A stretch of 64,000 nucleotides of DNA from Escherichia phage tootiki, in sequence record MN850647.1; one strand, 5' to 3'. Numbering within the stretch: the first letter of the stretch is position 1; each line of letters begins with the position of its first letter. A model generated the notes under the pieces. That model was not told the origin of the DNA and made no database searches. It saw only the letters and a list, made by a program, of their open reading frames with translations. The position numbers were made by a program, and so were the translations under genes. This document shows, one piece after another, positions 30 through 24,999 of this stretch.

Positions 30-3057
<3,028 letters not shown>

Positions 3058-3058
<1 letters not shown>

Positions 3059-3342
3059 TACATTTTTCCTGCTCTTCTAAGTTCGTTGTAAGCAATTTCC
3101 TCTTTATACGACCTCTGAATTTCAAGAAATTGTCTCAATGATAATAAATCAGAGAATGTCATAGCAAAGAGTTGGTCAAGTGTTTCTTTACACCCTTCCA
3201 TACCATAAATAGCAAGCACAAATTTCATCTCGTCTGCTTCTTCATAGGTTGCCTCTACAGCAGCATCAGTTAGTGGTGTCTGTAGAGTGTTACCCATGTT
3301 TACTGAGAAGTTAGGCTTTTGAAAATGCTTGCTTCGAAAAAA
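3058..3342 (-). CDS. tail assembly chaperone frameshift extension (GT-like C-terminal part)
   Basis: ORF in -1 frame relative to 3300-3698, open from slippery site through to 3058; ends at tape-measure start. Confidence 0.5.
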
Positions 3343-7511: not shown

Positions 7512-8618
7512 TTATTCGCCTTCAGCATCAGCGCGAACATCTACCAGCAACTGAGGACGAGTACAGTATGGCAGCATGTAAGAGTGAGCTTCGAAGTCAA
7601 TACCTTCGTCACGGTCTTTTTCGTATTCGAATACATACAGTTCCTGACCAAGTGTATTTGCGTAACCCATCTTAGGACATGGACCGTATGCAACTTCGAA
7701 GATGTTGTTAGCTTCACCAAGCATAGATACGTTAGGGAAAGCATGACCAACACCAACAGTGTCTGCTACACTATCAATGCTCACCAGAGTGTGAACCTTA
7801 CCACGCTTGTCTTTGAACTTACCGTTGTACTGGACAAACTTAACACCACCGTAGTAGAAGGTGTTCATATGAGCCTGAACGCCGTCAGTACCACCAGTTC
7901 TCAGAGAACCAGTAATCTGTTGCCAAGCCAGTGGAGTCTGCTGTGCAAGATAGGCGTCACGAATCTTAGGGTGCTTAGTCAGTTTGCTGAAGAATACACG
8001 GTCAACAACTACGTGAATTTCTTCACCGTTGATTACAGTGCCAGTCTTAGCTTCGTCTTCCATGTGCATACGCAGTTCTTCAATAGAAGCGTCGATGTCA
8101 GCATTAGGGTTGTCAAGGTCGAAGTAAATAGTCTTCTTCTCAACGTCGAACTGTTTGTACAGGTCAGCGTACAGAGTACCACGAGCATCAACAACTTTAC
8201 CCTTCAGAGCTTGCATAAACAGGAACTCACGAGTAATATCAAACTTGGTACGAATCTTCATCAGCTTCTTGGCACGTACTACAGCTTCAGTAGTCAGTTC
8301 GTTTGCAGTGCCTGGCTGACGTACACCCTGAATCTCATCAGGAGTAATGCTTTCAACTTCTTTGAAGTACATCATTGGGAAGCTGATTTGACGAACACGC
8401 TCAGGTGCGCTAGTCTCTGCTTTACGGCTATCACGGTCTACCGCATCAAGCAAGCTAACATCCCAATCAGTCAAGTCCATAAGGAAAGTAGTTTGGGTGA
8501 TTGGTGCTGAACGGAACAGACCTAAGTTGGAAATATACCCATAAGTATTTGGGATAGACTGGACTTCACCAGTCAGGTCAGCAAGGAAAAATCTGCTTTT
8601 TTCAGAATTAGTCAACAT
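7512..8618 (-). CDS. major capsid protein (lambda E-like)
   Basis: 368 aa; follows protease and decoration-like gene; strongly codon-biased, highly expressed appearance. Confidence 0.8.
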   Translation of the reverse strand: MLTNSEKSRFFLADLTGEVQSIPNTYGYISNLGLFRSAPITQTTFLMDLTDWDVSLLDAVDRDSRKAETSAPERVRQISFPMMYFKEVESITPDEIQGVRQPGTANELTTEAVVRAKKLMKIRTKFDITREFLFMQALKGKVVDARGTLYADLYKQFDVEKKTIYFDLDNPNADIDASIEELRMHMEDEAKTGTVINGEEIHVVVDRVFFSKLTKHPKIRDAYLAQQTPLAWQQITGSLRTGGTDGVQAHMNTFYYGGVKFVQYNGKFKDKRGKVHTLVSIDSVADTVGVGHAFPNVSMLGEANNIFEVAYGPCPKMGYANTLGQELYVFEYEKDRDEGIDFEAHSYMLPYCTRPQLLVDVRADAEGE

Positions 8619-14759: not shown

Positions 14760-14835
14760 TGGAGAATCCGAAGGGACTCGAACCCTTATAAACCTGTTCT
14801 GCAGACAGGTACATATCCATTTCTGTCACGGATTC
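14760..14835 (-). tRNA. tRNA-Cys (anticodon GCA)
   Basis: hand-folded cloverleaf: acceptor GAATCCG/CGGATTC, anticodon loop CTGCAGA, T-arm AAGGG-TTCGAGT-CCCTT, CCA encoded. Confidence 0.7.
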
Positions 14836-14839
14836 AAAT

Positions 14840-14932
14840 TGGAGGAAGATACCAGACTTGAACTGGTACACCGATTTCTCAGCTACTGGCAGTTTAGCAA
14901 ACTGCTCCCTTACCTTTTAGGGTTAATCTTCC
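14840..14932 (-). tRNA. tRNA-Ser (anticodon GCT), class II
   Basis: acceptor GGAAGAT/ATCTTCC, anticodon loop TTGCTAA, long variable arm, T-arm ACCAG-TTCAAGT-CTGGT. Confidence 0.65.
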
Positions 14933-14933
14933 A

Positions 14934-15668
14934 TTATTTCTGTAATGCGTTCTTCATTTCTGGTGTTGCAATAGTGTCAATCACACCAGTTTTACAAGCA
15001 TCGTCAAACCAGTCTGGTAAGATACCTGCTAAGAACCCATTGATATTCGTTTTAAGGTACTCTGCAATAAGGGCAGCTTCTTCTTCAATCATCTGCACAA
15101 CTTCATCTGCATAAGCTGTAATCTTTGAAATACCTTCATTAATTTTACTGACAGCTTGGTTAGCTAAATCAGAAACAGTGTCAAGACCCTTATCAATAGC
15201 GTCTTGTAAGTCACTTAACACACCGTTAACACTGTCTAGTGTGCTGTTAATCATGTCAATAGCTTGCTGACCATACTCTGTAGCAACACCCATAATACCA
15301 CTAAATGGTGTACAACCAACTTGTTCTCCTGCTGCACCCATAACATTGGAGTATCCCTTTGCTACCTGCATACGTGATGAAAACTCATCAATAGACTTTT
15401 GACCGTAGTCTGTTAGGGTCTTAGTAGTCGCTGTAGTGCTTGTAAGGCTTGTTGTAAAGCTGTTTAGAAGGACTGTTGTAAGTCCAGCAGCAACAAGTTT
15501 CTCCTTCATTGTAGGGTCTGTTACAGAGCTAATAGAGCTTACAAGTGATGTAGAGGCAGCTACGGTTCCACCGAGAACTGCTGCACCAGTAATAAGTGGG
15601 TTAGAAAACCCTTTACCGGTTTTTAAGAGATTAAAAATCTCCTTACCTTGTTCTGTCATCTCTTTCAT
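14934..15668 (-). CDS. hypothetical Ala/Ser/Thr-rich protein
   Basis: ORF track start at 15731 overlaps tRNA-Phe; start moved to internal ATG at 15668 (MKEMTEQ). Confidence 0.4.
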   Translation of the reverse strand: MKEMTEQGKEIFNLLKTGKGFSNPLITGAAVLGGTVAASTSLVSSISSVTDPTMKEKLVAAGLTTVLLNSFTTSLTSTTATTKTLTDYGQKSIDEFSSRMQVAKGYSNVMGAAGEQVGCTPFSGIMGVATEYGQQAIDMINSTLDSVNGVLSDLQDAIDKGLDTVSDLANQAVSKINEGISKITAYADEVVQMIEEEAALIAEYLKTNINGFLAGILPDWFDDACKTGVIDTIATPEMKNALQK

Positions 15669-15686
15669 TAAGCACCTTTGAAATTG

Positions 15687-15761
15687 GTAGTCCAGTGGGA
15701 TTTGAACCCTCTTCTCATGTTTTTCAGACACGCGCTTTAACCATATAAGCTACTTGGACTA
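15687..15761 (-). tRNA. tRNA-Phe (anticodon GAA)
   Basis: acceptor TAGTCCA/TGGACTA, anticodon stem CGTGT/ACATG loop CTGAAAA, T-loop TTCAAAT; D-arm weak. Confidence 0.55.
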
Positions 15762-15765
15762 TAAA

Positions 15766-15842
15766 TTGGGGTGACCTACGGGATTTGAACCCGTATAGAC
15801 CATGTTCACAGCATGGGTCATTACCATTTATGATAAGGCCAC
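15766..15842 (-). tRNA. tRNA-His (anticodon GTG)
   Basis: acceptor GTGGCCT/AGGTCAC, D-stem TCAT/ATGA, anticodon loop CTGTGAA, discriminator C, CCA encoded. Confidence 0.7.
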
Positions 15843-15873
15843 ATTTAAGGACTCTCGTAAGAACCCTTAGAAG

Positions 15874-15949
15874 TGGCAGCGGCATAAGGATTTGAACCTT
15901 AATAGGACAGCTTCAGAGACTGCTGCATTGCCAGTTATGCTATACCGCT
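15874..15949 (-). tRNA. tRNA-Gln (anticodon CTG)
   Basis: acceptor AGCGGTA/TGCCGCT, D-stem GCAT/ATGC, anticodon loop CTCTGAA, discriminator G. Confidence 0.65.
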
Positions 15950-15954
15950 AAAAT

Positions 15955-16033
15955 TGGTACTCCATATCGGATTCGAACCGATACATAACACAGATTTTAA
16001 GTCTGGCCTCTCTGCCAATTGGAGTAATGGAGC
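15955..16033 (-). tRNA. tRNA with Leu-type anticodon TAA, class-I length
   Basis: acceptor GCTCCAT/ATGGAGT, T-arm ATCGG-TTCGAAT-CCGAT, anticodon loop CTTAAAA, discriminator A; no long variable arm. Confidence 0.45.
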
Positions 16034-16035
16034 AT

Positions 16036-16111
16036 TGGCGGGGGATGTTGGAATTGAACCAACTTCTTCGATTTCAAAGACCGAGGTTTTAACCTTGTAA
16101 ACTAATCCCCT
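16036..16111 (-). tRNA. tRNA-Gln (anticodon TTG)
   Basis: acceptor with A1-C72 mismatch, D-stem GTTT/AAAC, anticodon stem TCGGT/ATCGA loop CTTTGAA, discriminator G. Confidence 0.6.
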
Positions 16112-16119
16112 TTAAATCT

Positions 16120-16677
16120 TTACTTTCTCAGTGGATGAATAAAGAATGCCAACATAACTCTTTCCCTTGAGAATGCTCTTTCTTCTGGGACAACACTTTT
16201 TAGTTTCCATCCAATATAAATTCTCCAGTAAAACTGTTTACCAAAGACTTTAATTGATGGGATAAAAGCGAATAACCCCCAAGCATTACTGTTCCACATT
16301 AGGAGATAGCCAGTCTGATTATCTTCAGGGTCAGAACTTACGTTGATATTACCTTTCCACTTAGTAACATCTTTTACATCTCTTCCTAATACATGGTAAG
16401 AGAAGTTATAAGCTTTGTTTCTCCAGAGCCATCCAACTCTCTGCATGTAGACACCCAGTTTACCAATCTTTCTAATCTTAGCCCATCTTTTGACGTGGCC
16501 TTCGTCACCATCAATCGGGTTGTCATAGGTCTCCATCCATCTGAATCCAAAAGGCAGATGTCCCTTCTTCTCACTGTAGAATGGAACTACGAAAGGTGCT
16601 AAGATGACTGCTAGGGTTGCTGCAAATGGTTCTAGTAAAGCTAGGAAAATCCATGAAGCATACTTCAAATATCTCAT
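16120..16677 (-). CDS. hypothetical membrane protein
   Basis: 185 aa ORF with hydrophobic N-terminus, embedded in tRNA array. Confidence 0.45.
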   Translation of the reverse strand: MRYLKYASWIFLALLEPFAATLAVILAPFVVPFYSEKKGHLPFGFRWMETYDNPIDGDEGHVKRWAKIRKIGKLGVYMQRVGWLWRNKAYNFSYHVLGRDVKDVTKWKGNINVSSDPEDNQTGYLLMWNSNAWGLFAFIPSIKVFGKQFYWRIYIGWKLKSVVPEERAFSRERVMLAFFIHPLRK

Positions 16678-16696
16678 CTAAATAGCCTCTTAAAAT

Positions 16697-16774
16697 TGGT
16701 GTTCCAAGACGGATTCGAACCGTCACTAATACAAGGTTTGAGCTTGCATCCTCTGCCAATTGGGATACTGGAAC
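16697..16774 (-). tRNA. tRNA with Leu-type anticodon CAA, class-I length
   Basis: acceptor GTTCCAG/TTGGAAC, T-arm GACGG-TTCGAAT-CCGTC, anticodon stem GCAAG/CTTGT loop CTCAAAC, discriminator A. Confidence 0.45.
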
Positions 16775-16775
16775 A

Positions 16776-16850
16776 TGGTACTCACTAAAGGACTTGAACC
16801 TTTTTCTTCATCTTGTAAGGGTGGTGTTTTACCATATAAACTAAGCGAGT
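16776..16850 (-). tRNA. tRNA-like, anticodon position reads TAC (Val) but anticodon stem poorly paired
   Basis: good acceptor, D-arm GTTT/AAAC and T-arm AAAGG-TTCAAGT-CCTTT; anticodon stem only 3 of 5 pairs. Confidence 0.4.
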
Positions 16851-16945
16851 GTGAAAGAGGTCTTAAGTTGTGCCGCTAACTCAACTCCGTGGAATTTGTT
16901 ACGGTCTTCAGTTGACACCAGCGGTCTTTCACTTGACCTCTGAAT

Positions 16946-17022
16946 TGGTGCTGCTCACAGGACTCGAACCTGCATTTCCATCCTTACAAGGGATGTGTAA
17001 TAGCCAATTATACGAAAGCAGC
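16946..17022 (-). tRNA. tRNA-Thr (anticodon TGT)
   Basis: anticodon stem CATCC/GGATG loop CTTGTAA, T-arm GCAGG-TTCGAGT-CCTGT, discriminator A. Confidence 0.7.
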
Positions 17023-17029
17023 ATTAATT

Positions 17030-17104
17030 TGGAGCATCCAGAGGGAATCGAACCCTCAACCTCAGTTTGGAAGACTGTAATTTTCCCGTTTAAACTATGG
17101 ATGC
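17030..17104 (-). tRNA. tRNA-Gly (anticodon TCC)
   Basis: acceptor GCATCCA/TGGATGC, anticodon loop CTTCCAA, T-arm GAGGG-TTCGATT-CCCTC, discriminator T. Confidence 0.65.
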
Positions 17105-17110
17105 ACTAAT

Positions 17111-17186
17111 TGGTGGAGAAGCAGGGAATTGAACCCTGTACTTAAGTTTGCAAAACTTATGTTTTAACCATGTAAACTACATCCCC
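17111..17186 (-). tRNA. tRNA-Ala (anticodon TGC)
   Basis: D-stem GTTT/AAAC, anticodon stem TAAGT/ACTTA loop TTTGCAA, T-arm CAGGG-TTCAATT-CCCTG, discriminator A. Confidence 0.7.
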
Positions 17187-17192
17187 AATATC

Positions 17193-17268
17193 TGGTACAG
17201 GTGGAGGGAATTGAACCCATCGTCTTACTGATTAAGAGTCAGCCGCATAACCATTTTGCTACACCTGC
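17193..17268 (-). tRNA. tRNA-Lys (anticodon CTT)
   Basis: acceptor GCAGGTG/CACCTGT, anticodon loop CTCTTAA; T-stem ATGGG/CCCTC imperfect, same as tRNA-Lys(TTT). Confidence 0.55.
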
Positions 17269-17275
17269 ATTAATT

Positions 17276-17353
17276 TGGTAGGAGACAAGGGATTCGAACC
17301 CTCAAACATCTCGTTCTAAGCGAGATAGGTTTACCAATTACCGTCAATCTCCC
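17276..17353 (-). tRNA. tRNA with Leu-type anticodon TAG, class-I length
   Basis: anticodon stem ATCTCG/CGAGAT perfect, loop CTTAGAA, T-arm GAGGG-TTCGAAT-CCCTT, discriminator A; no long variable arm. Confidence 0.5.
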
Positions 17354-17432
17354 ATTAAATCTTTTTAGAGAACTTCTAAGAACCTAAGCAACAAGGTTCC
17401 ACAACAAGCTGTAATAACCTTAGAAGCCCTCT

Positions 17433-17452
17433 AAAAAGACCTAAAAAGGTCT
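17433..17452 (-). terminator. intrinsic terminator-like hairpin inside tRNA array
   Basis: minus strand AGACC-TTTTTA-GGTCT followed by TTTT. Confidence 0.4.
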
Positions 17453-17611
17453 TTGCATAGTCTTGTTTAATCCGGTGACTATAACCTTTGGAGAGCTTGA
17501 TATTATCTCTTCTCCGTGACACCTACTAGGTGCTTTACTGTGCATGTACGACAATACACTAGGGATACCAAAGCAACATCCGAATGAAGCTTGGCTTTAA
17601 ATCTTATTAGG

Positions 17612-17699
17612 CGGTAAGTAAAGGAGTCGAACCCTCACCGTATCTCTACAGTGGCAACTGTTTTCAAGACAGTTTGGCTACCATTAGCCGCTACCTACC
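17612..17699 (-). tRNA. tRNA-Ser (anticodon TGA), class II
   Basis: acceptor GGTAGGT/ACTTACC, anticodon stem ACTGT/ACAGT loop CTTGAAA, 20 nt variable arm, discriminator G. Confidence 0.7.
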
Positions 17700-17717
17700 C
17701 CTAATAAGACTTTGGCA

Positions 17718-17795
17718 TGGGACGGAGGAGTTGAACCACTTTGAAACGGTTTTGGAGGCCGTTGCTCATGCCTTAGAGTCTTAACATCGTCCCAC
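17718..17795 (-). tRNA. tRNA-like; possible Trp (anticodon CCA) with enlarged D-loop
   Basis: acceptor GTGGGAC/GTCCCAT plus G73 and encoded CCA, T-loop TTCAACT; core does not fold canonically. Confidence 0.35.
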
Positions 17796-17932
17796 ACTAT
17801 AATTCGAAGCTTACCGTATTTTCACAACACTGTAAAGCCCCTTCTCAGATTATTTACATGTTCTGGAAAACATGAGATACAGACCACCTCCTTACAGGAA
17901 GACCCGCTTAGGTCGTCTAAGTAATCTGCTAA

Positions 17933-18280
17933 CTAATACTTTGCATGTCTTACCCTATGGCAATTTGAACATAGCAAAACACATTTGTCAAGTTCATCTT
18001 TTAGTTCTTGAGAGAACTTAAGGCTTTTCCTATGACCAATGTTAAAATCTTTATCTGAAGGATTCAAATGATGGAAGTCATACACTGCTGGATGATATTT
18101 CTTACCACAATCATGACAAACCCCACCTTTGTACTCAATAGCTGAGAGTTTAAGTGCTCTTTGTCTTTCTATGGTTTGCTCATTAACACACTTTTTACAG
18201 TATGAATGAGTTCTCCTACCATCTTTCATGTAGAAATCATTTTCATCCTTGCTAAGTTTGCACCTAATACAAGTTTTCAT
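17933..18280 (-). CDS. HNH endonuclease
   Basis: Cys pairs CIRCK and CKKC, HH-LNPSD-N motif, CSNCH; start moved to MKTCIRC because track start overlaps a tRNA. Confidence 0.7.
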   Translation of the reverse strand: MKTCIRCKLSKDENDFYMKDGRRTHSYCKKCVNEQTIERQRALKLSAIEYKGGVCHDCGKKYHPAVYDFHHLNPSDKDFNIGHRKSLKFSQELKDELDKCVLLCSNCHRVRHAKY

Positions 18281-18294
18281 GATTTCTCCAAAAT

Positions 18295-18376
18295 TGGTCG
18301 AGGCGGCAGGACTCGAACCCGCATACTCCACTTACTCGGTTAACGTCTGTTTAGAAGACAGATGAGATACGCCCCG
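18295..18376 (-). tRNA. tRNA-like; possible Arg (anticodon TCT) with atypical geometry
   Basis: acceptor CGGGGCG/CGCCTCG, T-arm GCGGG-TTCGAGT-CCTGC, CCA encoded; perfect hairpin TCTGT-CTTCTAA-ACAGA but no room for a D-arm. Confidence 0.35.
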
Positions 18377-18624
18377 TAATTATCTTTAAAGACTCTCTTA
18401 GAAAGCCCTTAAAGATGCCCACCTTATTAATCATACCGTGGGCTAGTACGCCAAATTCTTTGATGAGGGATTGGAAGACCTCACTGGTGTTTAGCCTATC
18501 AAGCTACTGCCAGAAAAACATTGTCGTTTGCATTTATTTTAAATTTGCAAAATAGACGCTACGCAACGAAAACTAAGGTTACTATAAAGTAGTCACATCT
18601 CAGTGTCAACAACTTTATTGAAAG

Positions 18625-18699
18625 TGGTTGTAGGTGAGGGTATCGAACCCTCTTCTAACGGTTATCAGCCGTTTGCATTACCATTTATGCTAACCCACA
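18625..18699 (-). tRNA. tRNA-Ile (anticodon GAT)
   Basis: D-stem GCAT/ATGC, anticodon stem AACGG/CCGTT loop CTGATAA, T-arm GAGGG-TTCGATA-CCCTC, discriminator A. Confidence 0.7.
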
Positions 18700-18701
18700 A
18701 T

Positions 18702-18778
18702 TGGAGGTTCAGGTGGGATTCAAACCCACATTCATAGGGCTTATGAAACCCTTGCATTACCTTATCTGCGACTGAACC
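18702..18778 (-). tRNA. tRNA-Met (anticodon CAT)
   Basis: acceptor GGTTCAG/CTGAACC, anticodon stem AAGGG/GCCCT loop TTCATAA, T-arm GTGGG-TTTGAAT-CCCAC. Confidence 0.65.
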
Positions 18779-18783
18779 ATTTT

Positions 18784-18859
18784 TGGTAGAAGTGGAGGGA
18801 TTCGAACCCATCGCCTGTCAGATTAAAAGTCTGCCGCATCACCATTCTGCTACACTTCC
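18784..18859 (-). tRNA. tRNA-Lys (anticodon TTT)
   Basis: acceptor GGAAGTG/CACTTCT, anticodon loop CTTTTAA, discriminator A; T-stem ATGGG/CCCTC imperfect. Confidence 0.55.
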
Positions 18860-19010
18860 ATTAAATCATCTTTGCAGTAACCTACGCAGACCTTGCTAAA
18901 GGGTCTGTAGAGTCATTTCATATTAAGCTAATCTAGAATCATACTAAGGAAATTCATCGGCACTCATGGGACGACATAATTAGCCACATAAGCTACTGCA
19001 AAGATAATTA

Positions 19011-19141
19011 CCAGACCGTTGTTTATCATCTTAAGTGCTACCATTACACCAACTCGACCTCTGCCGAGTGAAGGAATCGAACCTTCGCCTTTTCTTTACC
19101 GAGAAATAGATTGTTTAAGTTTTGCTGTAAACGGTCTTCTG
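19011..19141 (-). ncRNA. structured spacer module a: terminal inverted repeat enclosing a tRNA-like T-arm and D-arm-like segment
   Basis: minus strand CAGAAGACCG...CGGTCTGG ends pair; internal GAAGG-TTCGATT-CCTTC and AGTTGGTGTAATGGTAGCAC; no anticodon arm. Confidence 0.4.
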
Positions 19142-19154
19142 TAAATTTGTTGAG

Positions 19155-19230
19155 CCAGACCAAGTTTTAAATTTTTCAAAATTGAATTGGCTTGAAAATA
19201 TCATACATTCTTGCTGTATTTGGTCTTCTG
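19155..19230 (-). repeat. spacer module b (CCAGACCA...TGGTCTTCTG inverted-repeat unit)
   Basis: same terminal inverted repeat as module a. Confidence 0.4.
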
Positions 19231-19291
19231 CTCCTTTAAAGAATACTCGTAAGAACTCTTTAAGGGAGGGGCTAAATAGCCCTCTCAAAAT

Positions 19292-19368
19292 TGGCGGCTA
19301 CGATGAGACTTGAACTCAAATCATCTCCCGTGACAGGGGAGTATTTTCTCCAGTTAAACTACATAGCC
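19292..19368 (-). tRNA. tRNA-Asp (anticodon GTC)
   Basis: anticodon stem CTCCC/GGGAG loop CTGTCAC, acceptor GGCTATG/CGTAGCC, discriminator G. Confidence 0.7.
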
Positions 19369-19373
19369 TTTAT

Positions 19374-19461
19374 TGGTGTGCCGTGTAGGAGTCGAACCTA
19401 CCGAGTCTCAATGACAAGGGATTTACAGTCCCCACCGCTACCATCTACGGGATAACGACAC
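19374..19461 (-). tRNA. tRNA-Tyr (anticodon GTA), class II
   Basis: T-arm GTAGG-TTCGACT-CCTAC, anticodon loop CTGTAAA, about 15 nt variable arm, discriminator A. Confidence 0.7.
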
Positions 19462-19469
19462 ATTTAATT

Positions 19470-19546
19470 TGGCGGTTAGTCAGGGATTCGAACCCTGTGC
19501 CATTCGCTTAACAGGCGACCGCACATACCTTATGTGCTTCCTAACC
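19470..19546 (-). tRNA. tRNA-Asn (anticodon GTT)
   Basis: D-stem GCAC/GTGC, anticodon loop CTGTTAA, T-arm CAGGG-TTCGAAT-CCCTG, discriminator G. Confidence 0.65.
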
Positions 19547-19557
19547 TTAATACATTG

Positions 19558-19618
19558 CCAGACCGTGTTTTTTCTTTTATCCGCAAAAAAGTATTTTGTT
19601 GCTGAATACGGTCTTCTG
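19558..19618 (-). repeat. spacer module c (CCAGACCG...CGGTCTTCTG inverted-repeat unit)
   Basis: same terminal inverted repeat; internal GCAA/TTGC hairpin. Confidence 0.4.
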
Positions 19619-19624
19619 CAAAAT

Positions 19625-19701
19625 TGGAGGCGGGTGCAGGAGTCGAACCTGCCGATACCATGCTAATGAGACATGTGAGACGCCCTTTCTCTATACCCGC
19701 A
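19625..19701 (-). tRNA. tRNA-Met (anticodon CAT), second copy with 1-72 mismatch
   Basis: T-arm GCAGG-TTCGACT-CCTGC, D-stem GAGA/TCTC, anticodon stem CATGT/GCATG loop CTCATTA; T1-C72 unpaired. Confidence 0.55.
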
Positions 19702-19712
19702 ATTCTCAATGA

Positions 19713-19784
19713 CCAGACCAAATATCTTCTTTGTCCGATTTCGTGTCAGATGAGTAGATTAAGTTTGCTGTAATTGGTCTTCTG
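19713..19784 (-). repeat. spacer module d (CCAGACCA...TGGTCTTCTG inverted-repeat unit)
   Basis: same terminal inverted repeat as modules a-c. Confidence 0.4.
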
Positions 19785-19791
19785 TCAAAAC

Positions 19792-19869
19792 TGGCGTTCC
19801 AGAAGGGATTTGAACCCTCAGATATCCACTTTGAAAGAGTGGTGACTTTACCATTTTGTCTACTGGAAC
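19792..19869 (-). tRNA. tRNA-Glu (anticodon TTC)
   Basis: acceptor GTTCCAG/CTGGAAC, anticodon stem CCACT/AGTGG loop CTTTCAA, discriminator G. Confidence 0.7.
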
Positions 19870-19876
19870 ATTAATT

Positions 19877-19953
19877 TGGTCTCTGTTGGAGGACTTGAAC
19901 CTCCGGCCTTACCGCCCCAAACGGAATGCTCTACCAAGCTGAGCTAAACAGAG
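19877..19953 (-). tRNA. tRNA-Pro (anticodon TGG)
   Basis: acceptor CTCTGTT/AACAGAG, D-stem GCTC/GAGC, anticodon loop TTTGGGG, T-arm GGAGG-TTCAAGT-CCTCC. Confidence 0.65.
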
Positions 19954-20118: not shown

Positions 20119-21534
20119 TTACCAGATGTAACGGTCAATCATTACTGCTTTGAGCATTACGCTGATTGGGTCAAACTTCTCACCACCAAGCAGAGCTTTT
20201 AAAGTGGCTGGAGAGAACCCTGATACCATTGCTACACCATTATCCTTAACAGACACTTCGCAAGTACCATTACGGTTTGCTAAGTACCAGAATACTAGTT
20301 GTGGCATTTCGTATCCAGCTTTTTTGTACTTACTCTGAATTGCTTCAAAGTTTGTACGACCATTTGCACCATCAACCTGATTGAACTCCATATCAGAGAA
20401 GATGATAAGCTTACTTGGCATATCTTTCTGAGTCAAGTTGTTTCTATTACCTACCTCAAGAATACGGTCAAAAGCTGCTTGTAAGTTAGTTGAACCATAT
20501 TCAACATGACGCATTACCTGACGATGACGGTTTCGTAAATCACCACTCAGTTCAATGAAATGAGGGTTTGTTGAATAGACCATTAACTCATCTTTAAAGC
20601 AACCTGTATTGCGTTCTGCTATATACAAGGCAAGTGATACACCAATATCAAGGGCAGTGATTGAGCCAAGATTCACCCAAGACATTGAGCTTGAAACATC
20701 AGTCATACACAGGATGTTTTCACCTTCTGCCATCCAGTTTGGTAGTGCTTTCCACTGCTCATTAGCAACATCTGCATTACCATACTTAATAGATTTAATC
20801 ACATCGTATGGGTAAACAGCACCAGCGTTAATCTTAGCCTCACCCTTTGATAGTGATTCGATGTAAGCTTTGTAACGTTCCCCATCTTTACGGTTAAAGA
20901 GCTTTTGGTAACGTGCAGCAGCAAGTGAGGGAATCTTGCTGTAGTCAATCTTACCAAACTCATTAGCAGAGATTTTTTGCTCAACCGTATCAGACAGTGC
21001 AGATAACAGTGTGCGATACTCCTTCTCGCTTAAGTTTGCAAATTTACAGAAACGTTTTACAAACTGTTTGTGGCGTGGTTTTACTCGTGGCAACCACTTA
21101 GCTGCTAAACCTGCTGTTGCAGGGTCTAGTAATACTGCTTCTAAATGTTTGAAGGCATCTGTCTCAAAACGAGTATCTACAAAGATTTTGAAGTCATCAA
21201 AACGACCCAGTTCTGCAATCTTATCCATAATGCGAAGAACCTGTGTAGGTTCTAAAACCTTATCTTCAATCGCTTGAAGTAAAACAGTTCGGAAAGCTTT
21301 ACGCTCACCCATACCTTCTCGTACATCTCGCATATGCAGTAAAATACGAACTGCAACATCAACATCCTCACGCAAAGCTTTGTAGAACAGGTCTGGTAAG
21401 ATTTCTACATTGCTACGGCTTGAGCCAGCGGATTTGTAGAAGTCTACCAGAGCAGACATTGATGAAGTATGGTTTACAGCACCATTTTCAGTTCGACCTG
21501 CATGAAGGTGCGCATGTTTAAATAACTCGCTCAT
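20119..21534 (-). CDS. vWA/MIDAS-motif protein with helical N-terminal domain (DUF2828-like; Ro60-like architecture)
   Basis: 471 aa; MIDAS-like DVSSSM around residue 275; N-terminal TENGA...S..LVDFY...GSSRS pattern. Confidence 0.55.
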   Translation of the reverse strand: MSELFKHAHLHAGRTENGAVNHTSSMSALVDFYKSAGSSRSNVEILPDLFYKALREDVDVAVRILLHMRDVREGMGERKAFRTVLLQAIEDKVLEPTQVLRIMDKIAELGRFDDFKIFVDTRFETDAFKHLEAVLLDPATAGLAAKWLPRVKPRHKQFVKRFCKFANLSEKEYRTLLSALSDTVEQKISANEFGKIDYSKIPSLAAARYQKLFNRKDGERYKAYIESLSKGEAKINAGAVYPYDVIKSIKYGNADVANEQWKALPNWMAEGENILCMTDVSSSMSWVNLGSITALDIGVSLALYIAERNTGCFKDELMVYSTNPHFIELSGDLRNRHRQVMRHVEYGSTNLQAAFDRILEVGNRNNLTQKDMPSKLIIFSDMEFNQVDGANGRTNFEAIQSKYKKAGYEMPQLVFWYLANRNGTCEVSVKDNGVAMVSGFSPATLKALLGGEKFDPISVMLKAVMIDRYIW

Positions 21535-22398: not shown

Positions 22399-22613
22399 AA
22401 ATCGCAGATATTATAGATTTATATCAAACTGCAAAGAGTCATGGCTATATAACCTCAATTGGAAAGAATAGTCACTATGATGCTTTGACTGGAATGTATT
22501 TCAGGGCAATGGCTCAATCTAGTGAACAACACTTAGTAGTTTCTTCCAGTGAGTTTACTTCGTTTCTCTATTGCAGCAAAATTATAAATCGCAGGAGAAC
22601 TGAAAAATGTTAA
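22380..22613 (+). CDS. hypothetical protein
   Basis: 77 aa ORF, overlapping junctions with neighbours. Confidence 0.4.
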   Translation: MCSSQLEIADIIDLYQTAKSHGYITSIGKNSHYDALTGMYFRAMAQSSEQHLVVSSSEFTSFLYCSKIINRRRTEKC

Positions 22614-23197
22614 CAGTAAGTTTTAATTACAATAGTGATGGCTCTGTATCAATTAATTCACCATATGCAAATGACCTGCTTAAAGAGCTAGTCAATCAGT
22701 GTGATAGAGGTCTTCACTATGTTCAAAATTCTTTTAAACAGAAGACTATTGCTAATAACTTGATGCGTGTAACAGTGACGGCATCGAATCTAAATTATGA
22801 CTTTGATAGTGAAAGTCCGTACTCATTAGTTGCGCTTGGAGAGAGCAGCCAATTCAAACTTGTTTGCCACGACTCAGAAACATTCCTTAAGGTATTTTCC
22901 AACCTTATCCATAATAATAAGTACAGCTACGTTGATGGTAGTGTAAACTTCTATCCAGCAAACTATACATGTTTGTTGGTTGATAATATGAGAAAAAGTA
23001 AGCAAGAGCCTACAGAAATTTCATTTGATGTGAACTCTAGTCCAGACGCAGAAACAAGTAAGAACTTTGATATGAGTTACGCATTGTCACTTAGTAAGAA
23101 ATCCGAGTTCATTGATTATGTCAATGGATTTGGTTTTAAGTTTGATGAGAGTATGAATCTTAAAAAACTTAAGAACCTACTTAAGACCAAAGCTTAA
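22607..23197 (+). CDS. hypothetical protein
   Basis: 196 aa ORF with GGAG upstream. Confidence 0.5.
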   Translation: MLTVSFNYNSDGSVSINSPYANDLLKELVNQCDRGLHYVQNSFKQKTIANNLMRVTVTASNLNYDFDSESPYSLVALGESSQFKLVCHDSETFLKVFSNLIHNNKYSYVDGSVNFYPANYTCLLVDNMRKSKQEPTEISFDVNSSPDAETSKNFDMSYALSLSKKSEFIDYVNGFGFKFDESMNLKKLKNLLKTKA

Positions 23198-23244
23198 GTG
23201 TGAATAGGGGCTGATGCCCCTTTAACTATTTATAAGGATATTTA

Positions 23245-23616
23245 ATGAAAGCTAAGAGTGCAAAAGACTTTTATTGCTTCCTACAATCCTATATCAATTC
23301 CGTGCAAAATGGTGAAAGGTACAACCTTAATGATGTTATCCCAACACCTTTGACATGGAGACTCAGCAAATGGCCTGAAGAAGATATTACACCAACAATC
23401 GAACAGCGTACCTACAAACCTGAAATCAATATTCCAGATTCTGAGAACCTATTATATCCAATGTTCCATATTGTTGGACTTGGAAGATTCCTTATGGATA
23501 TCCAGTATGTAATTGGTAAAGGCTATAAGGTTAAAGGTATTGTTGTTGGTGATGTATCTCCGCATCACAAAGGTTATTTTAGACTAAACGCACATTTAGA
23601 GGCTAAAAAGAAATGA
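23245..23616 (+). CDS. hypothetical protein, paralog of N-terminal domain of next gene
   Basis: 123 aa; clear similarity to residues 1-110 of 23613-24497 (both contain FxMDxQYxI). Confidence 0.55.
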   Translation: MKAKSAKDFYCFLQSYINSVQNGERYNLNDVIPTPLTWRLSKWPEEDITPTIEQRTYKPEINIPDSENLLYPMFHIVGLGRFLMDIQYVIGKGYKVKGIVVGDVSPHHKGYFRLNAHLEAKKK

Positions 23617-24497
23617 TTAAAGCAAAGACTTACCCAGACTTCAAAGAGTTTGTGAAGGGTTTCATTGCAAATGTAAAGGCTGGTAAGAGGTATGATTTTA
23701 GAACATATCAAGAGGCTATTTTACCACTTACCTATAGTTCATATTGGCCTGAAGCTGATATTGCAGAAGTTGAGAAGTTTGACTACAAACCAGACTACAA
23801 AGTTCCATTTAGTGATGAATTGCTTTACAGTGTTGGTGCACAGATGAGAACTGCTGATTTCTTCATGGATTTGCAGTATGCAATCATCAATGGTAAAGAT
23901 GTTGACACAATTTACTGTGAATGGTTGGCAAGAGTTAAGCCGTTCTCAATGTTGAATGCTAAGTTGAAGGATGCTATTAAGCCACCAGCAATTACTCAGC
24001 AACCGACAGGTCAAACAGTCAATGAGGGTGGCACACTTACTCTAAGCATTCTAGCAACTAACGCCACTGGATATCAGTGGAAGAAGGATGGTGAGGACAT
24101 CCCTAGTGCCAATTCTGCAACTTACACAAAACAGTCAGTAGCACCTTCTGATGCTGGTTCATACACTTGTGTTGTATCTGGAGAGGGTGGAACAAGTGTT
24201 ACCTCAGATGCAGCAACAGTGACTGTGAATGCACTTCCTGTCATCACTCAACAGCCAACCAATCAAGAAATCAATGAAGGTGAGACCTTAACGTTGAATG
24301 TTGTGGCAACAGGTGCAACAGGTTATCAGTGGAAGAAAGATGAGGAAGACATCCTCGATGCAACTACTGCAACCTACACCAAAGAAGGAGCAACCGCTGC
24401 TGATTCAGGAAGCTACACCTGTGTAGTTACTGGTGCAGGTGGCTCTGTAACATCTAATGCGGCAACAGTTACAGTTAACCCAGCAGGGGAGGCATAA
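23613..24497 (+). CDS. protein with two C-terminal Ig-like domains
   Basis: 294 aa; tandem 80 aa repeats each with YQWKKD...GSYTCVV; ATGA overlap with upstream gene. Confidence 0.6.
   Translation: MIKAKTYPDFKEFVKGFIANVKAGKRYDFRTYQEAILPLTYSSYWPEADIAEVEKFDYKPDYKVPFSDELLYSVGAQMRTADFFMDLQYAIINGKDVDTIYCEWLARVKPFSMLNAKLKDAIKPPAITQQPTGQTVNEGGTLTLSILATNATGYQWKKDGEDIPSANSATYTKQSVAPSDAGSYTCVVSGEGGTSVTSDAATVTVNALPVITQQPTNQEINEGETLTLNVVATGATGYQWKKDEEDILDATTATYTKEGATAADSGSYTCVVTGAGGSVTSNAATVTVNPAGEA
23980..24480 (+). repeat. tandem coding repeat (two Ig-like domain units)
   Basis: two adjacent units of about 245 bp encoding near-identical motif order. Confidence 0.6.
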
Positions 24498-24961
24498 TGC
24501 AACTCTCAAGAAAAGGTTTAGAAGCTATTAAGTTCTTTGAAGGTCTGAAGTTAGAGGCTTACAAAGACTCCGCCGGAATCCCAACAATTGGGTATGGTAC
24601 AATCCGTATTGACGGAAAACCTGTTAAGATGGGTATGAAAATTACTGCTGAACAAGCTGAACAGTATCTTCTCGCAGATGTTGAAAAGTTTGTTGCAGCA
24701 GTGAACAAAGCTATCAAGGTTCCAACCTCTCAGAATGAGTTCGATGCACTTGTAAGTGAAACATACAACATTGGTATCACAGCTATGCAGGATTCTACAT
24801 TTATTAAGCGCCACAATGCTGGTAATAAGGTAGGTTGTGCAGAAGCTATGCAGTGGTGGAACAAGATTACAGTCAAAGGTGAGAAGGTCACTTCAAACGG
24901 TCTGAAAAACAGACGTAGAATGGAAGCTGACATTTATCTTGACAGTGTATATCCAAAGTAA
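24497..24961 (+). CDS. endolysin, GH24 lysozyme family
   Basis: 154 aa; LEAYKDSAGIPTIGYG signature with catalytic E/D/T pattern of T4-type lysozymes. Confidence 0.8.
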   Translation: MQLSRKGLEAIKFFEGLKLEAYKDSAGIPTIGYGTIRIDGKPVKMGMKITAEQAEQYLLADVEKFVAAVNKAIKVPTSQNEFDALVSETYNIGITAMQDSTFIKRHNAGNKVGCAEAMQWWNKITVKGEKVTSNGLKNRRRMEADIYLDSVYPK

Positions 24962-24970
24962 TATCTTCAT

Positions 24971-24999
24971 AGGCTCCTTCGGGAGCCTTTTTTATTTTC
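24971..24999 (+). terminator. intrinsic terminator after endolysin
   Basis: AGGCTCC-TTCG-GGAGCCT hairpin followed by TTTTTTATTTT. Confidence 0.7.

Follow-up and report, generated by a model that had tools for sequence, protein, structure and literature searches.

A pair of neighbouring genes that share a capsid-binding domain (CapBD) lies directly upstream of the endolysin gene of Escherichia phage tootiki. The DNA analyzed here is a stretch of 64,000 nucleotides from this phage (sequence record MN850647.1), hereafter referred to as the window, and the pair occupies positions 23245-24497. The second and longer gene, which encodes 294 amino acids (aa), is identified from its sequence as Hex-Dec, a capsid decoration protein that is already known and structurally solved. 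The first gene encodes 123 aa and, as judged from alignments and a predicted fold, is a tandem paralogue comprising the CapBD fold alone. It is apparently undescribed in the literature, and it does not appear in the published models of phages Sf14 or Bas63. We regard the identity, architecture, and ancestry of the locus, taken together, as very probably correct; this confidence does not extend to the function of the paralogue. The elements of the pair are as follows.

23245-23616, plus strand: CapBD-only paralogue, 123 aa, with no immunoglobulin-like (Ig) domain; equals Felix O1 gp37, Sf14 gp21 (FDI99_gp021), and bas63_0125; phrog_4463
23613-24497, plus strand: Hex-Dec, a Hoc-like decoration protein of hexamer centers, 294 aa; equals Felix O1 gp36 and is the orthologue of Sf14 gp20 and bas63_0124
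23613-23981, plus strand: predicted CapBD of Hex-Dec, aa 1-123, with Arg79 and Arg107 (residues counted in the translation)
23982-24233, plus strand: Ig-like domain 1 (I-set/Ig_3 by Pfam), aa 124-207; corresponds to Ig1 of Bas63
24234-24482, plus strand: Ig-like domain 2 (I-set/Ig_3), aa 208-290; corresponds to the last Ig domain of the three- and four-domain variants

The window belongs to a Felix O1-like myophage of the genus Felixounavirus. The region has 98.9% nucleotide identity to Escherichia phage vB_EcoM_ASO1A (Felixounavirus), and its matches comprise roughly 250 phages of the Felix O1 type, with Escherichia, Salmonella, Shigella, and Citrobacter as hosts.

Several searches converge on the assignment of the 294-aa protein. 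In a phmmer search of the PDB, its residues 1-290 align with residues 1-290 of 9NCF chain S, the Hex-Dec of Bas63, deposited as an "Immunoglobulin-like domain protein" (E 6e-248), and nearly its full length aligns with chain S of 9C2D/9C3A, which is gp20 of Sf14 (E 7e-165). The N-terminal domain is 95-99% identical to Bas63 Hex-Dec (9NCF chain S), the protein matches phrog_3995 (E 1e-171), and gp36 of Felix O1 is a 99% identical orthologue. Cryogenic electron microscopy (cryo-EM) of Bas63 and Sf14 has characterized Hex-Dec as a monomeric, Hoc-like capsid decoration protein, the N-terminal CapBD of which (about 118 aa) sits in the center of a capsid hexamer, with flexible, outward-pointing Ig-like domains that are not resolved in the maps (PMC12609058, PMC11821841). 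In the T=9 shell of both phages, Hex-Dec is found only at the facet-edge, pentamer-proximal hexamers, that is, at 60 of 80 (PMC12609058, PMC11821841). In Sf14, salt bridges connect Arg79 and Arg107 with Asp221 in the major capsid protein (MCP) (PMC11821841). Both arginines are present in the tootiki translation and are invariant among 12 homologues, and the MCP encoded in the window (7512-8618) has Asp at position 221. In Felix O1, gp36 (31.6 kDa) was found by mass spectrometry (MS) in CsCl-purified virions with 44% coverage (PMC3185647). The tootiki protein would plug hexamer centers through its CapBD, and its C-terminus would project two I-set Ig domains.

The two tandem Ig-like domains had been proposed before from the DNA, and they are borne out. 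Pfam reports Ig_3 in two stretches (E 3.5e-23) and I-set (E 3.4e-16), and AlphaFold2 predicts a beta-sandwich for each domain with a predicted local distance difference test score (pLDDT) of 91-96. The direct DNA repeat that encodes them is equally real: the two domains share 57/83 residues (69%) and 166/249 nucleotides (67%), and their global alignment scores 78 against -41 +/- 7 for 300 codon shuffles.

Most genome records still label Hex-Dec as a "tail protein", so the practical gain from this assignment is a corrected annotation. The tail label of the 294-aa family ("tail protein", "HK97 major tail subunit") is a mislabel because it derives only from similarity of the Ig domains: the major-tail families phrog_158, 853, and 3575 align to the Ig region alone (aa 96-208), and cryo-EM puts the orthologues on the capsid (PMC12609058, PMC11821841). 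A component of the lysis machinery (holin, antiholin, or spanin) was also considered and rejected, as neither protein matches a lysis family in Pfam or PHROGs; inspection of both sequences revealed no continuous hydrophobic stretch, no transmembrane segment, and no signal peptide. Membership of the T4 Hoc family was rejected as well, since the domain order is reversed and the matches to phrog_2973 and phrog_4069 are limited to aa 120-292. The CapBD matches no Hoc structure in sequence and fold searches of the PDB.

In short, Hex-Dec works like T4 Hoc but stands outside the Hoc family. Both are monomers at hexamer centers that project a string of Ig domains, both are non-essential, and for both a role in adhesion to mucus or cell surfaces and in the modulation of aggregation has been proposed; the Hoc-like PHROG families match the Ig region of Hex-Dec (E 5e-29). 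The capsid-binding domain, however, is C-terminal in Hoc and N-terminal in Hex-Dec, no sequence similarity is found beyond the Ig domains, and the CapBD of Hex-Dec is topologically distinct, larger, and pseudo-C2 symmetric (PMC12609058). A similar picture is seen for the decoration protein pb10 of phage T5 (5LXK, 8ZVI), the Ig region of which matches Hex-Dec (E ~2e-12), but the match is restricted to the Ig domain, and the capsid-binding domains have no detectable similarity. We know of no Ig-less paralogue of T4 hoc. The original prediction that the Ig domains mediate weak binding to surfaces or carbohydrates agrees with what the structural papers propose by analogy with T4 Hoc (PMC12609058, PMC11821841).

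The systems closest to tootiki are those of Bas63 (9NCF) and Sf14 (9C2D/9C3A), which have the same CapBD with Arg79 and Arg107, the same string of I-set Ig domains, and the same location directly upstream of the endolysin gene and about 15 kb from the capsid gene. In both, a 123-aa paralogue (bas63_0125, FDI99_gp021) precedes the gene. The difference lies in the number of Ig domains, which is two in tootiki, four in Bas63, and three in Sf14; tootiki lacks the equivalents of Ig2 and Ig3 of Bas63. Felix O1 gp36, recorded as a "major tail protein", agrees with the tootiki protein in length (294 aa) and in both Ig domains, and there is no biological difference between the two.

The protein encoded at 23245-23616 is homologous to the N-terminus of the next gene product, as the original prediction stated, and the similarity is significant on pairwise alignment. 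In BLASTP, 101 aa align with 38% identity (E=9e-17), corresponding to aa 2-100 of Hex-Dec, and the PHROG profiles of the two families, phrog_4463 and phrog_3995, cross-match with E values of 4e-15 and 6e-17. A phmmer search of the PDB with the 123-aa protein returns 9ncf_S and 9c2d_S only (E 6e-12 and 2e-11). Its AlphaFold2 model (pLDDT 72) matches the same two chains only when compared with the PDB by Foldseek, with TM scores of 0.68-0.69 over 118-119 columns and E ~1e-5, and no other PDB entry matches below E 0.4. The BFVD matches are confined to Ounavirinae relatives, and Pfam has no family for the protein. The paralogue has no Ig-like domain, and the protein stops after the CapBD.

Within the shared fold, the paralogue retains the hydrophobic core and the LLY...F(L/F)MD(I/L)QY and LNA motifs of the CapBD. 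The surface that contacts the capsid is different. The column of Arg79 is an invariant Gly in 15/15 aligned paralogue sequences, the column of Arg107 is variable (H, Q, or R), and the (V/L)KP(F/Y) motif of all Ig-bearing relatives has become HKGY. The net charge varies by lineage, with isoelectric points of 5.6-9.1, and gives no functional clue.

The paralogue is widely maintained. Its length is constant (122-124 aa) in nine compared phage loci, and its frame is intact in these loci and in nine aligned full-length database homologues. Identity is 72-100% in Felixounavirus, Mooglevirus, and Suspvirus, and a Felix O1 record in the phage database matches at 99.2% protein identity. In a divergent 87-kb metagenomic phage, identity falls to 45-48% for the paralogue and to 57% for the CapBD of Hex-Dec. 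The order gene38-like gene, paralogue, Hex-Dec, lysozyme is common to the three genera and to the 87-kb phage. The paralogue has its own ribosome-binding site, and its ATGA-type overlap of stop and start codons with Hex-Dec is kept across lineages (4 or 8 nt). The pairwise ratio of nonsynonymous to synonymous substitution rates (dN/dS) is 0.07-0.19, with dS up to 1-2.6; it is 0.01-0.06 for the CapBD of Hex-Dec and 0.1-0.29 for the first Ig domain. These ratios point to a functional protein under purifying selection, with a constraint somewhat weaker than that on the CapBD.

Not every isolate carries an intact copy. About 19/252 records (~7%) match Hex-Dec alone and have a decayed paralogue; for example, phages REP9 and Z31 contain a remnant that has lost its start codon and share the same ~220-bp deletion. 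Phages Tf and fKMPT1 are further natural isolates without the paralogue. That ~7% of isolates have nothing but the decayed remnant indicates that the paralogue is dispensable in the laboratory. In Shigella phage Z31 (MN655999), Hex-Dec is also split, at 2498-3070, into open reading frames (ORFs) of 405 and 168 nt, an apparent natural loss of both decoration genes in an isolate that remains viable.

The CapBD family is narrow. Word-indexed homologue searches found close relatives only (51 and 43 proteins), and an exhaustive profile hidden Markov model search of 1.84 billion cluster representatives yielded 12 clusters only. Among them are proteins of Erwinia Kolesnikvirus phages (P0099/P0100; phiEa104 E5AFW9), which combine a CapBD with a Big_2 domain, and three clusters represented by metagenome-derived proteins only: P0101, with a CapBD and a Lys-rich tail, the nearest phage-database matches of which are Pectobacterium/Yersinia phages at ~37% identity; P0102, with a CapBD and an uncharacterized C-terminal region of ~85 aa; and P0103, with a CapBD and an Ig-like domain. 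For the divergent paralogue P0097, a search for related loci in viral contigs gave no match, and its context was recovered from the contig that encodes it. It was also observed that, depending on the lineage, one CapBD is fused to different display modules, namely I-set Ig, Big_2, or a low-complexity tail rich in Lys, and the CapBD appears to serve generally as an N-terminal anchor on which surface domains are exchanged.

The Kolesnikvirus proteins bear on the direction of the duplication. Their CapBD is 35-38% identical and keeps the equivalent of Arg79, and the gene lies between a gene38-like gene and the lysozyme gene, as in tootiki; they differ in having a Big_2-type domain in place of I-set and no CapBD-only paralogue upstream. 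On an Erwinia-phage-like contig (L013), for example, a single CapBD+Big_2 gene stands between these neighbors, and no short paralogue was found on the contig. In a neighbor-joining tree, the Erwinia CapBDs group with the Hex-Dec CapBDs (99% bootstrap), and the paralogues form a separate clade (100%). The Ig-bearing form is probably ancestral and the Ig-less 123-aa gene derived; the latter is more likely to be the derived copy because the distant single-copy relatives (the Erwinia proteins and the metagenomic P0103, probably also P0102) are already Ig-bearing and cluster with the Ig-bearing copy. The original prediction of a gain of two Ig domains after the duplication was probably the reverse of what happened. 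Either the duplication predates the split between the Erwinia proteins and Hex-Dec, with a loss of the short copy in Kolesnikvirus, or the short copy evolved faster after the duplication. Under either scenario, the Ig-bearing architecture would be the older one.

The number of Ig domains has a history of its own, and the two in tootiki reflect gain and loss of internal cassettes between strains. The dS between the two domains is saturated at 2.9, which marks the domain duplication as old rather than as a repeat that arose recently in the DNA. The Ig repeat escapes Tandem Repeats Finder because its identity is below 70%. In a domain identity matrix, Ig1 of tootiki corresponds to Ig1 of Bas63 (90%) and of VpaE1_ev78 (100%), and Ig2 to Ig4 of Bas63 (94%) and Ig3 of VpaE1_ev78 (99%); the middle Ig of VpaE1_ev78 corresponds to Ig2 of Bas63 (96%). 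The single Ig of EC6 is 80% and 85% identical to the two tootiki domains and, from these values, looks like a hybrid. We surveyed Ig number in a spread sample of 60 of 250 matching genomes, reading it from the locus spans: spans of ~2103, 2355, 2604, and 2856 nt, equivalent to one, two, three, and four Ig domains, were found in ~8, 23, 19, and 5 genomes, respectively. Four-Ig forms (~5 genomes of the sample) are not unique to Bas63. As read from these alignments, strains differ in the cassettes that were inserted or deleted in the interior of the Ig string, and the first and last domains are conserved, the pattern expected from unequal recombination between ~250-nt repeats of ~70% identity. 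Recombination of this kind offers a simple explanation of the variation published for the genus, in which Ig number ranges from 1 to 4 and the Hex-Dec gene lies >10 kb outside the structural module (PMC12609058, PMC11821841). VpaE1_ev78 (LR597663) has three Ig domains, and VpaE1 (NC_027337) and VpaE1_ev108 (LR597658) have two, which suggests that, in genomes named as evolved VpaE1 derivatives, recombination took place at the Hex-Dec locus during derivation.

The pair adjoins the endolysin gene, the position of which directly downstream had been predicted correctly, and the three genes form one unit between two terminators (t38-like and t35-like). The ORFs on the plus strand are closely packed, at 23245-23616 (123 aa), 23613-24497 (294 aa), and 24497-24961 (154 aa); the stop codon of the first and the start codon of the second overlap as ATGA, and Hex-Dec and lysozyme have one base in common (TAATG). 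The remaining features of the unit, the upstream gene, and the capsid gene are as follows.

24497-24961, plus strand: endolysin, a T4-type lysozyme (PF00959, Pfam E 8.9e-41; phrog_7, E 1e-58); equals Felix O1 gene 35
23207-23233, plus strand: GC hairpin (GGGGC-TGAT-GCCCC) with a T-rich tail; equals Felix O1 terminator t38
24971-24998, plus strand: strong intrinsic terminator (AGGCTCCTTCGGGAGCCT and a T run); equals Felix O1 t35 and closes the three-gene unit
22607-23197, plus strand: 196-aa protein, phrog_4034 (E 4.5e-114), Felix O1 gene 38; adjoins the CapBD gene(s) upstream
7512-8618, minus strand: MCP, 368 aa, identified by peptides that match the MCP of Felix O1 (Asp221 counted in the translation)

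The hairpin at 23207-23233 stands between the 196-aa gene and the paralogue, folds with -14.2 kcal/mol (z = -2.6), and is identical in sequence to t38 in Table 2 of PMC3185647. A hairpin occurs at the equivalent site in Sf14, Moogle, EC6, mistaenkt, and a divergent metagenomic lineage (L015). The stems are GGGGC/GCCCC in the compared lineages, with the exception of L015, which has GGGG/CCCC and a longer loop. The core of the terminator at 24971-24998 (ggctccttcgggagcc and a T run) agrees with t35 of Felix O1. A scan for sigma-70 promoters gave matches below chance expectation and was uninformative. Expression of genes 36 and 37 in Felix O1 is highest at 60 min, as is that of the portal and tail-fiber genes, and genes 35 (lysin) and 38 peak at 25 min (PMC3185647).

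As for what the paralogue does, we tentatively lean, at less than even confidence, toward an accessory of capsid decoration that is expressed late and is either absent from virions or bound only transiently. It would carry the CapBD fold with an altered contact surface and not be stoichiometric in virions; for example, it might act as a placeholder or regulator at hexamer centers while heads assemble, or it might work with Hex-Dec as a partner. This reading is preferred because the Arg79 contact is lost, the protein is unreported in two virion proteomes, and no density was seen on unoccupied hexamers. In the first proteome, gp37 is not in the MS list of Felix O1 virions, in which proteins of 9.7-13.7 kDa were detected (PMC3185647); in the second, none of the three extra VpaE1 virion proteins (gp54, gp58, and gp68) is an orthologue of the paralogue. 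In the cryo-EM of Sf14 and Bas63, hexamers without Hex-Dec are reported to show no density, and both papers, as far as they can be searched, make no mention of the paralogue or the duplication (PMC12609058, PMC11821841). The Sf14 supplement contains no protein-level MS table, and the "gp21" it names is an SPP1 protein; the MS in the wV8 paper covers the tail fiber only. Our literature search found no further paper on Ounavirinae capsids.

It is important to note that several points weigh against our interpretation. The case for the function of the paralogue draws on negative evidence, and its contact with the capsid or Hex-Dec would be hypothetical. The Felix O1 MS list is restricted to proteins with at least 25% coverage, which weakens the absence of gp37; the VpaE1 list exists as a figure only and could not be read; and symmetry averaging would weaken a monomer on the icosahedral 3-fold hexamers. 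On the structural side, the AlphaFold2 confidence of the paralogue model is moderate, and a run of full-length Hex-Dec returned the CapBD at low confidence (pLDDT 30-54), so that model was used for the Ig domains only. On the side of ancestry, the position of the paralogue clade outside the Erwinia and Hex-Dec group could reflect faster evolution instead of an older duplication.

The first alternative, which we consider possible but doubtful, is that the paralogue is a second, Ig-less decoration of hexamer centers that fills the 20 facet-centre hexamers on true 3-fold axes or competes with Hex-Dec to tune the density of Ig fibers. Such an arrangement would parallel phages in which one structural protein is made both with and without Ig domains. 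The predicted fold of the paralogue is that of the solved CapBD, it is co-expressed late with Hex-Dec, and the stop and start codons of the two overlap. Hex-Dec is confined to facet-edge hexamers, a surface with Gly in place of Arg79 could suit the empty sites, and a monomer on a 3-fold axis would be smeared by icosahedral averaging. Against this stand the empty hexamers in both cryo-EM papers, the absence from the Felix O1 list although smaller proteins were found, the absence from the three extra VpaE1 proteins, and the viability of isolates without the paralogue.

It is also conceivable, though we think it unlikely, that the paralogue is a dedicated decoration partner that helps to explain why Hex-Dec is found on only 60/80 hexamers. 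In one version, it would labilely cap the 20 facet-centre or procapsid hexamers and so pattern the Ig fibers; in another, it would chaperone the loading of Hex-Dec. If either is true, a Hoc-like decoration system would have a hidden second member in the paralogue. Any contact of the paralogue with hexamers or with Hex-Dec would bear on site-selective decoration (60/80 hexamers) and on how Hex-Dec is used as a scaffold for display.

A neofunctionalized protein that has kept the CapBD fold, abandoned the capsid, and binds some other phage or host target late in infection is improbable to a similar degree. The identity to the CapBD is just 33-37%, Arg79 and the KP(F/Y) motif kept by every Ig-bearing relative are lost, dN/dS is roughly three-fold above that of the CapBD, and the protein is absent from the virion data. 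However, the strict linkage to Hex-Dec and the overlapping stop and start codons persist across deep divergence, the timing is as late as that of Hex-Dec, the hydrophobic core and both CapBD motifs are kept, and no other family is matched in Pfam, the PDB, or BFVD.

Far less probable is a role at the cell envelope, in which the pair would act with the endolysin as an accessory of lysis or adsorption. The original prediction drew such a role from the adjacency of the lysozyme gene, which does adjoin with overlapping stop and start codons in one terminator-bracketed unit. In addition, PhageMaP scored gene 124 of Bas63, which we confirmed to be Hex-Dec, as more essential in E. coli S17-1 than in the three further strains, and its authors speculate that this reflects adherence. 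For Hex-Dec, the envelope role is nevertheless contradicted by the orthologues, which cryo-EM places on the capsid as plugs of its hexamers, and by the presence of Felix O1 gp36 in virions. Neither sequence has an evident transmembrane segment or signal peptide, Felix O1 genes 36/37 peak with structural genes at 60 min and the lysin gene at 25 min, and any adhesion would come from the capsid surface, as in T4 Hoc, outside lysis. The least probable reading of all, in which a partial duplication left the short ORF behind as a non-functional relic now in decay, fits its dispensability and the disrupted remnant in one subclade (~19/252 genomes) but hardly survives a dN/dS of 0.07-0.19 over dS up to 1-2.6, a constant length with an intact frame in nine loci and nine database homologues, its own ribosome-binding site, and retention in a lineage at only 45-48% identity.

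Some further observations concern the surroundings of the pair. The loop of the hairpin ahead of the paralogue varies between lineages (L005-L010, L015), the GC-rich stem is kept, and the hairpin lies only ~10 nt ahead of the ribosome-binding site of the paralogue. Its role may go beyond that of a weak terminator; for example, it might regulate the late unit or stabilize its RNA. The 196-aa gene38-like protein is encoded directly upstream of the CapBD gene(s) in all lineages examined, with 205 aa in the Erwinia-phage-like contig L013 and 195 aa in the divergent metagenomic phage L015, and its position is more widely conserved than the paralogue itself. The MCP gene, ~15 kb from the Hex-Dec gene, lies inside the structural module. 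A 471-aa protein with DUF2828 and DUF7788, named "RNA-binding protein" in phage REP9, is encoded on the minus strand at 20119-21534, directly upstream of a cluster of 23 tRNA genes on the same strand (14763-19953).

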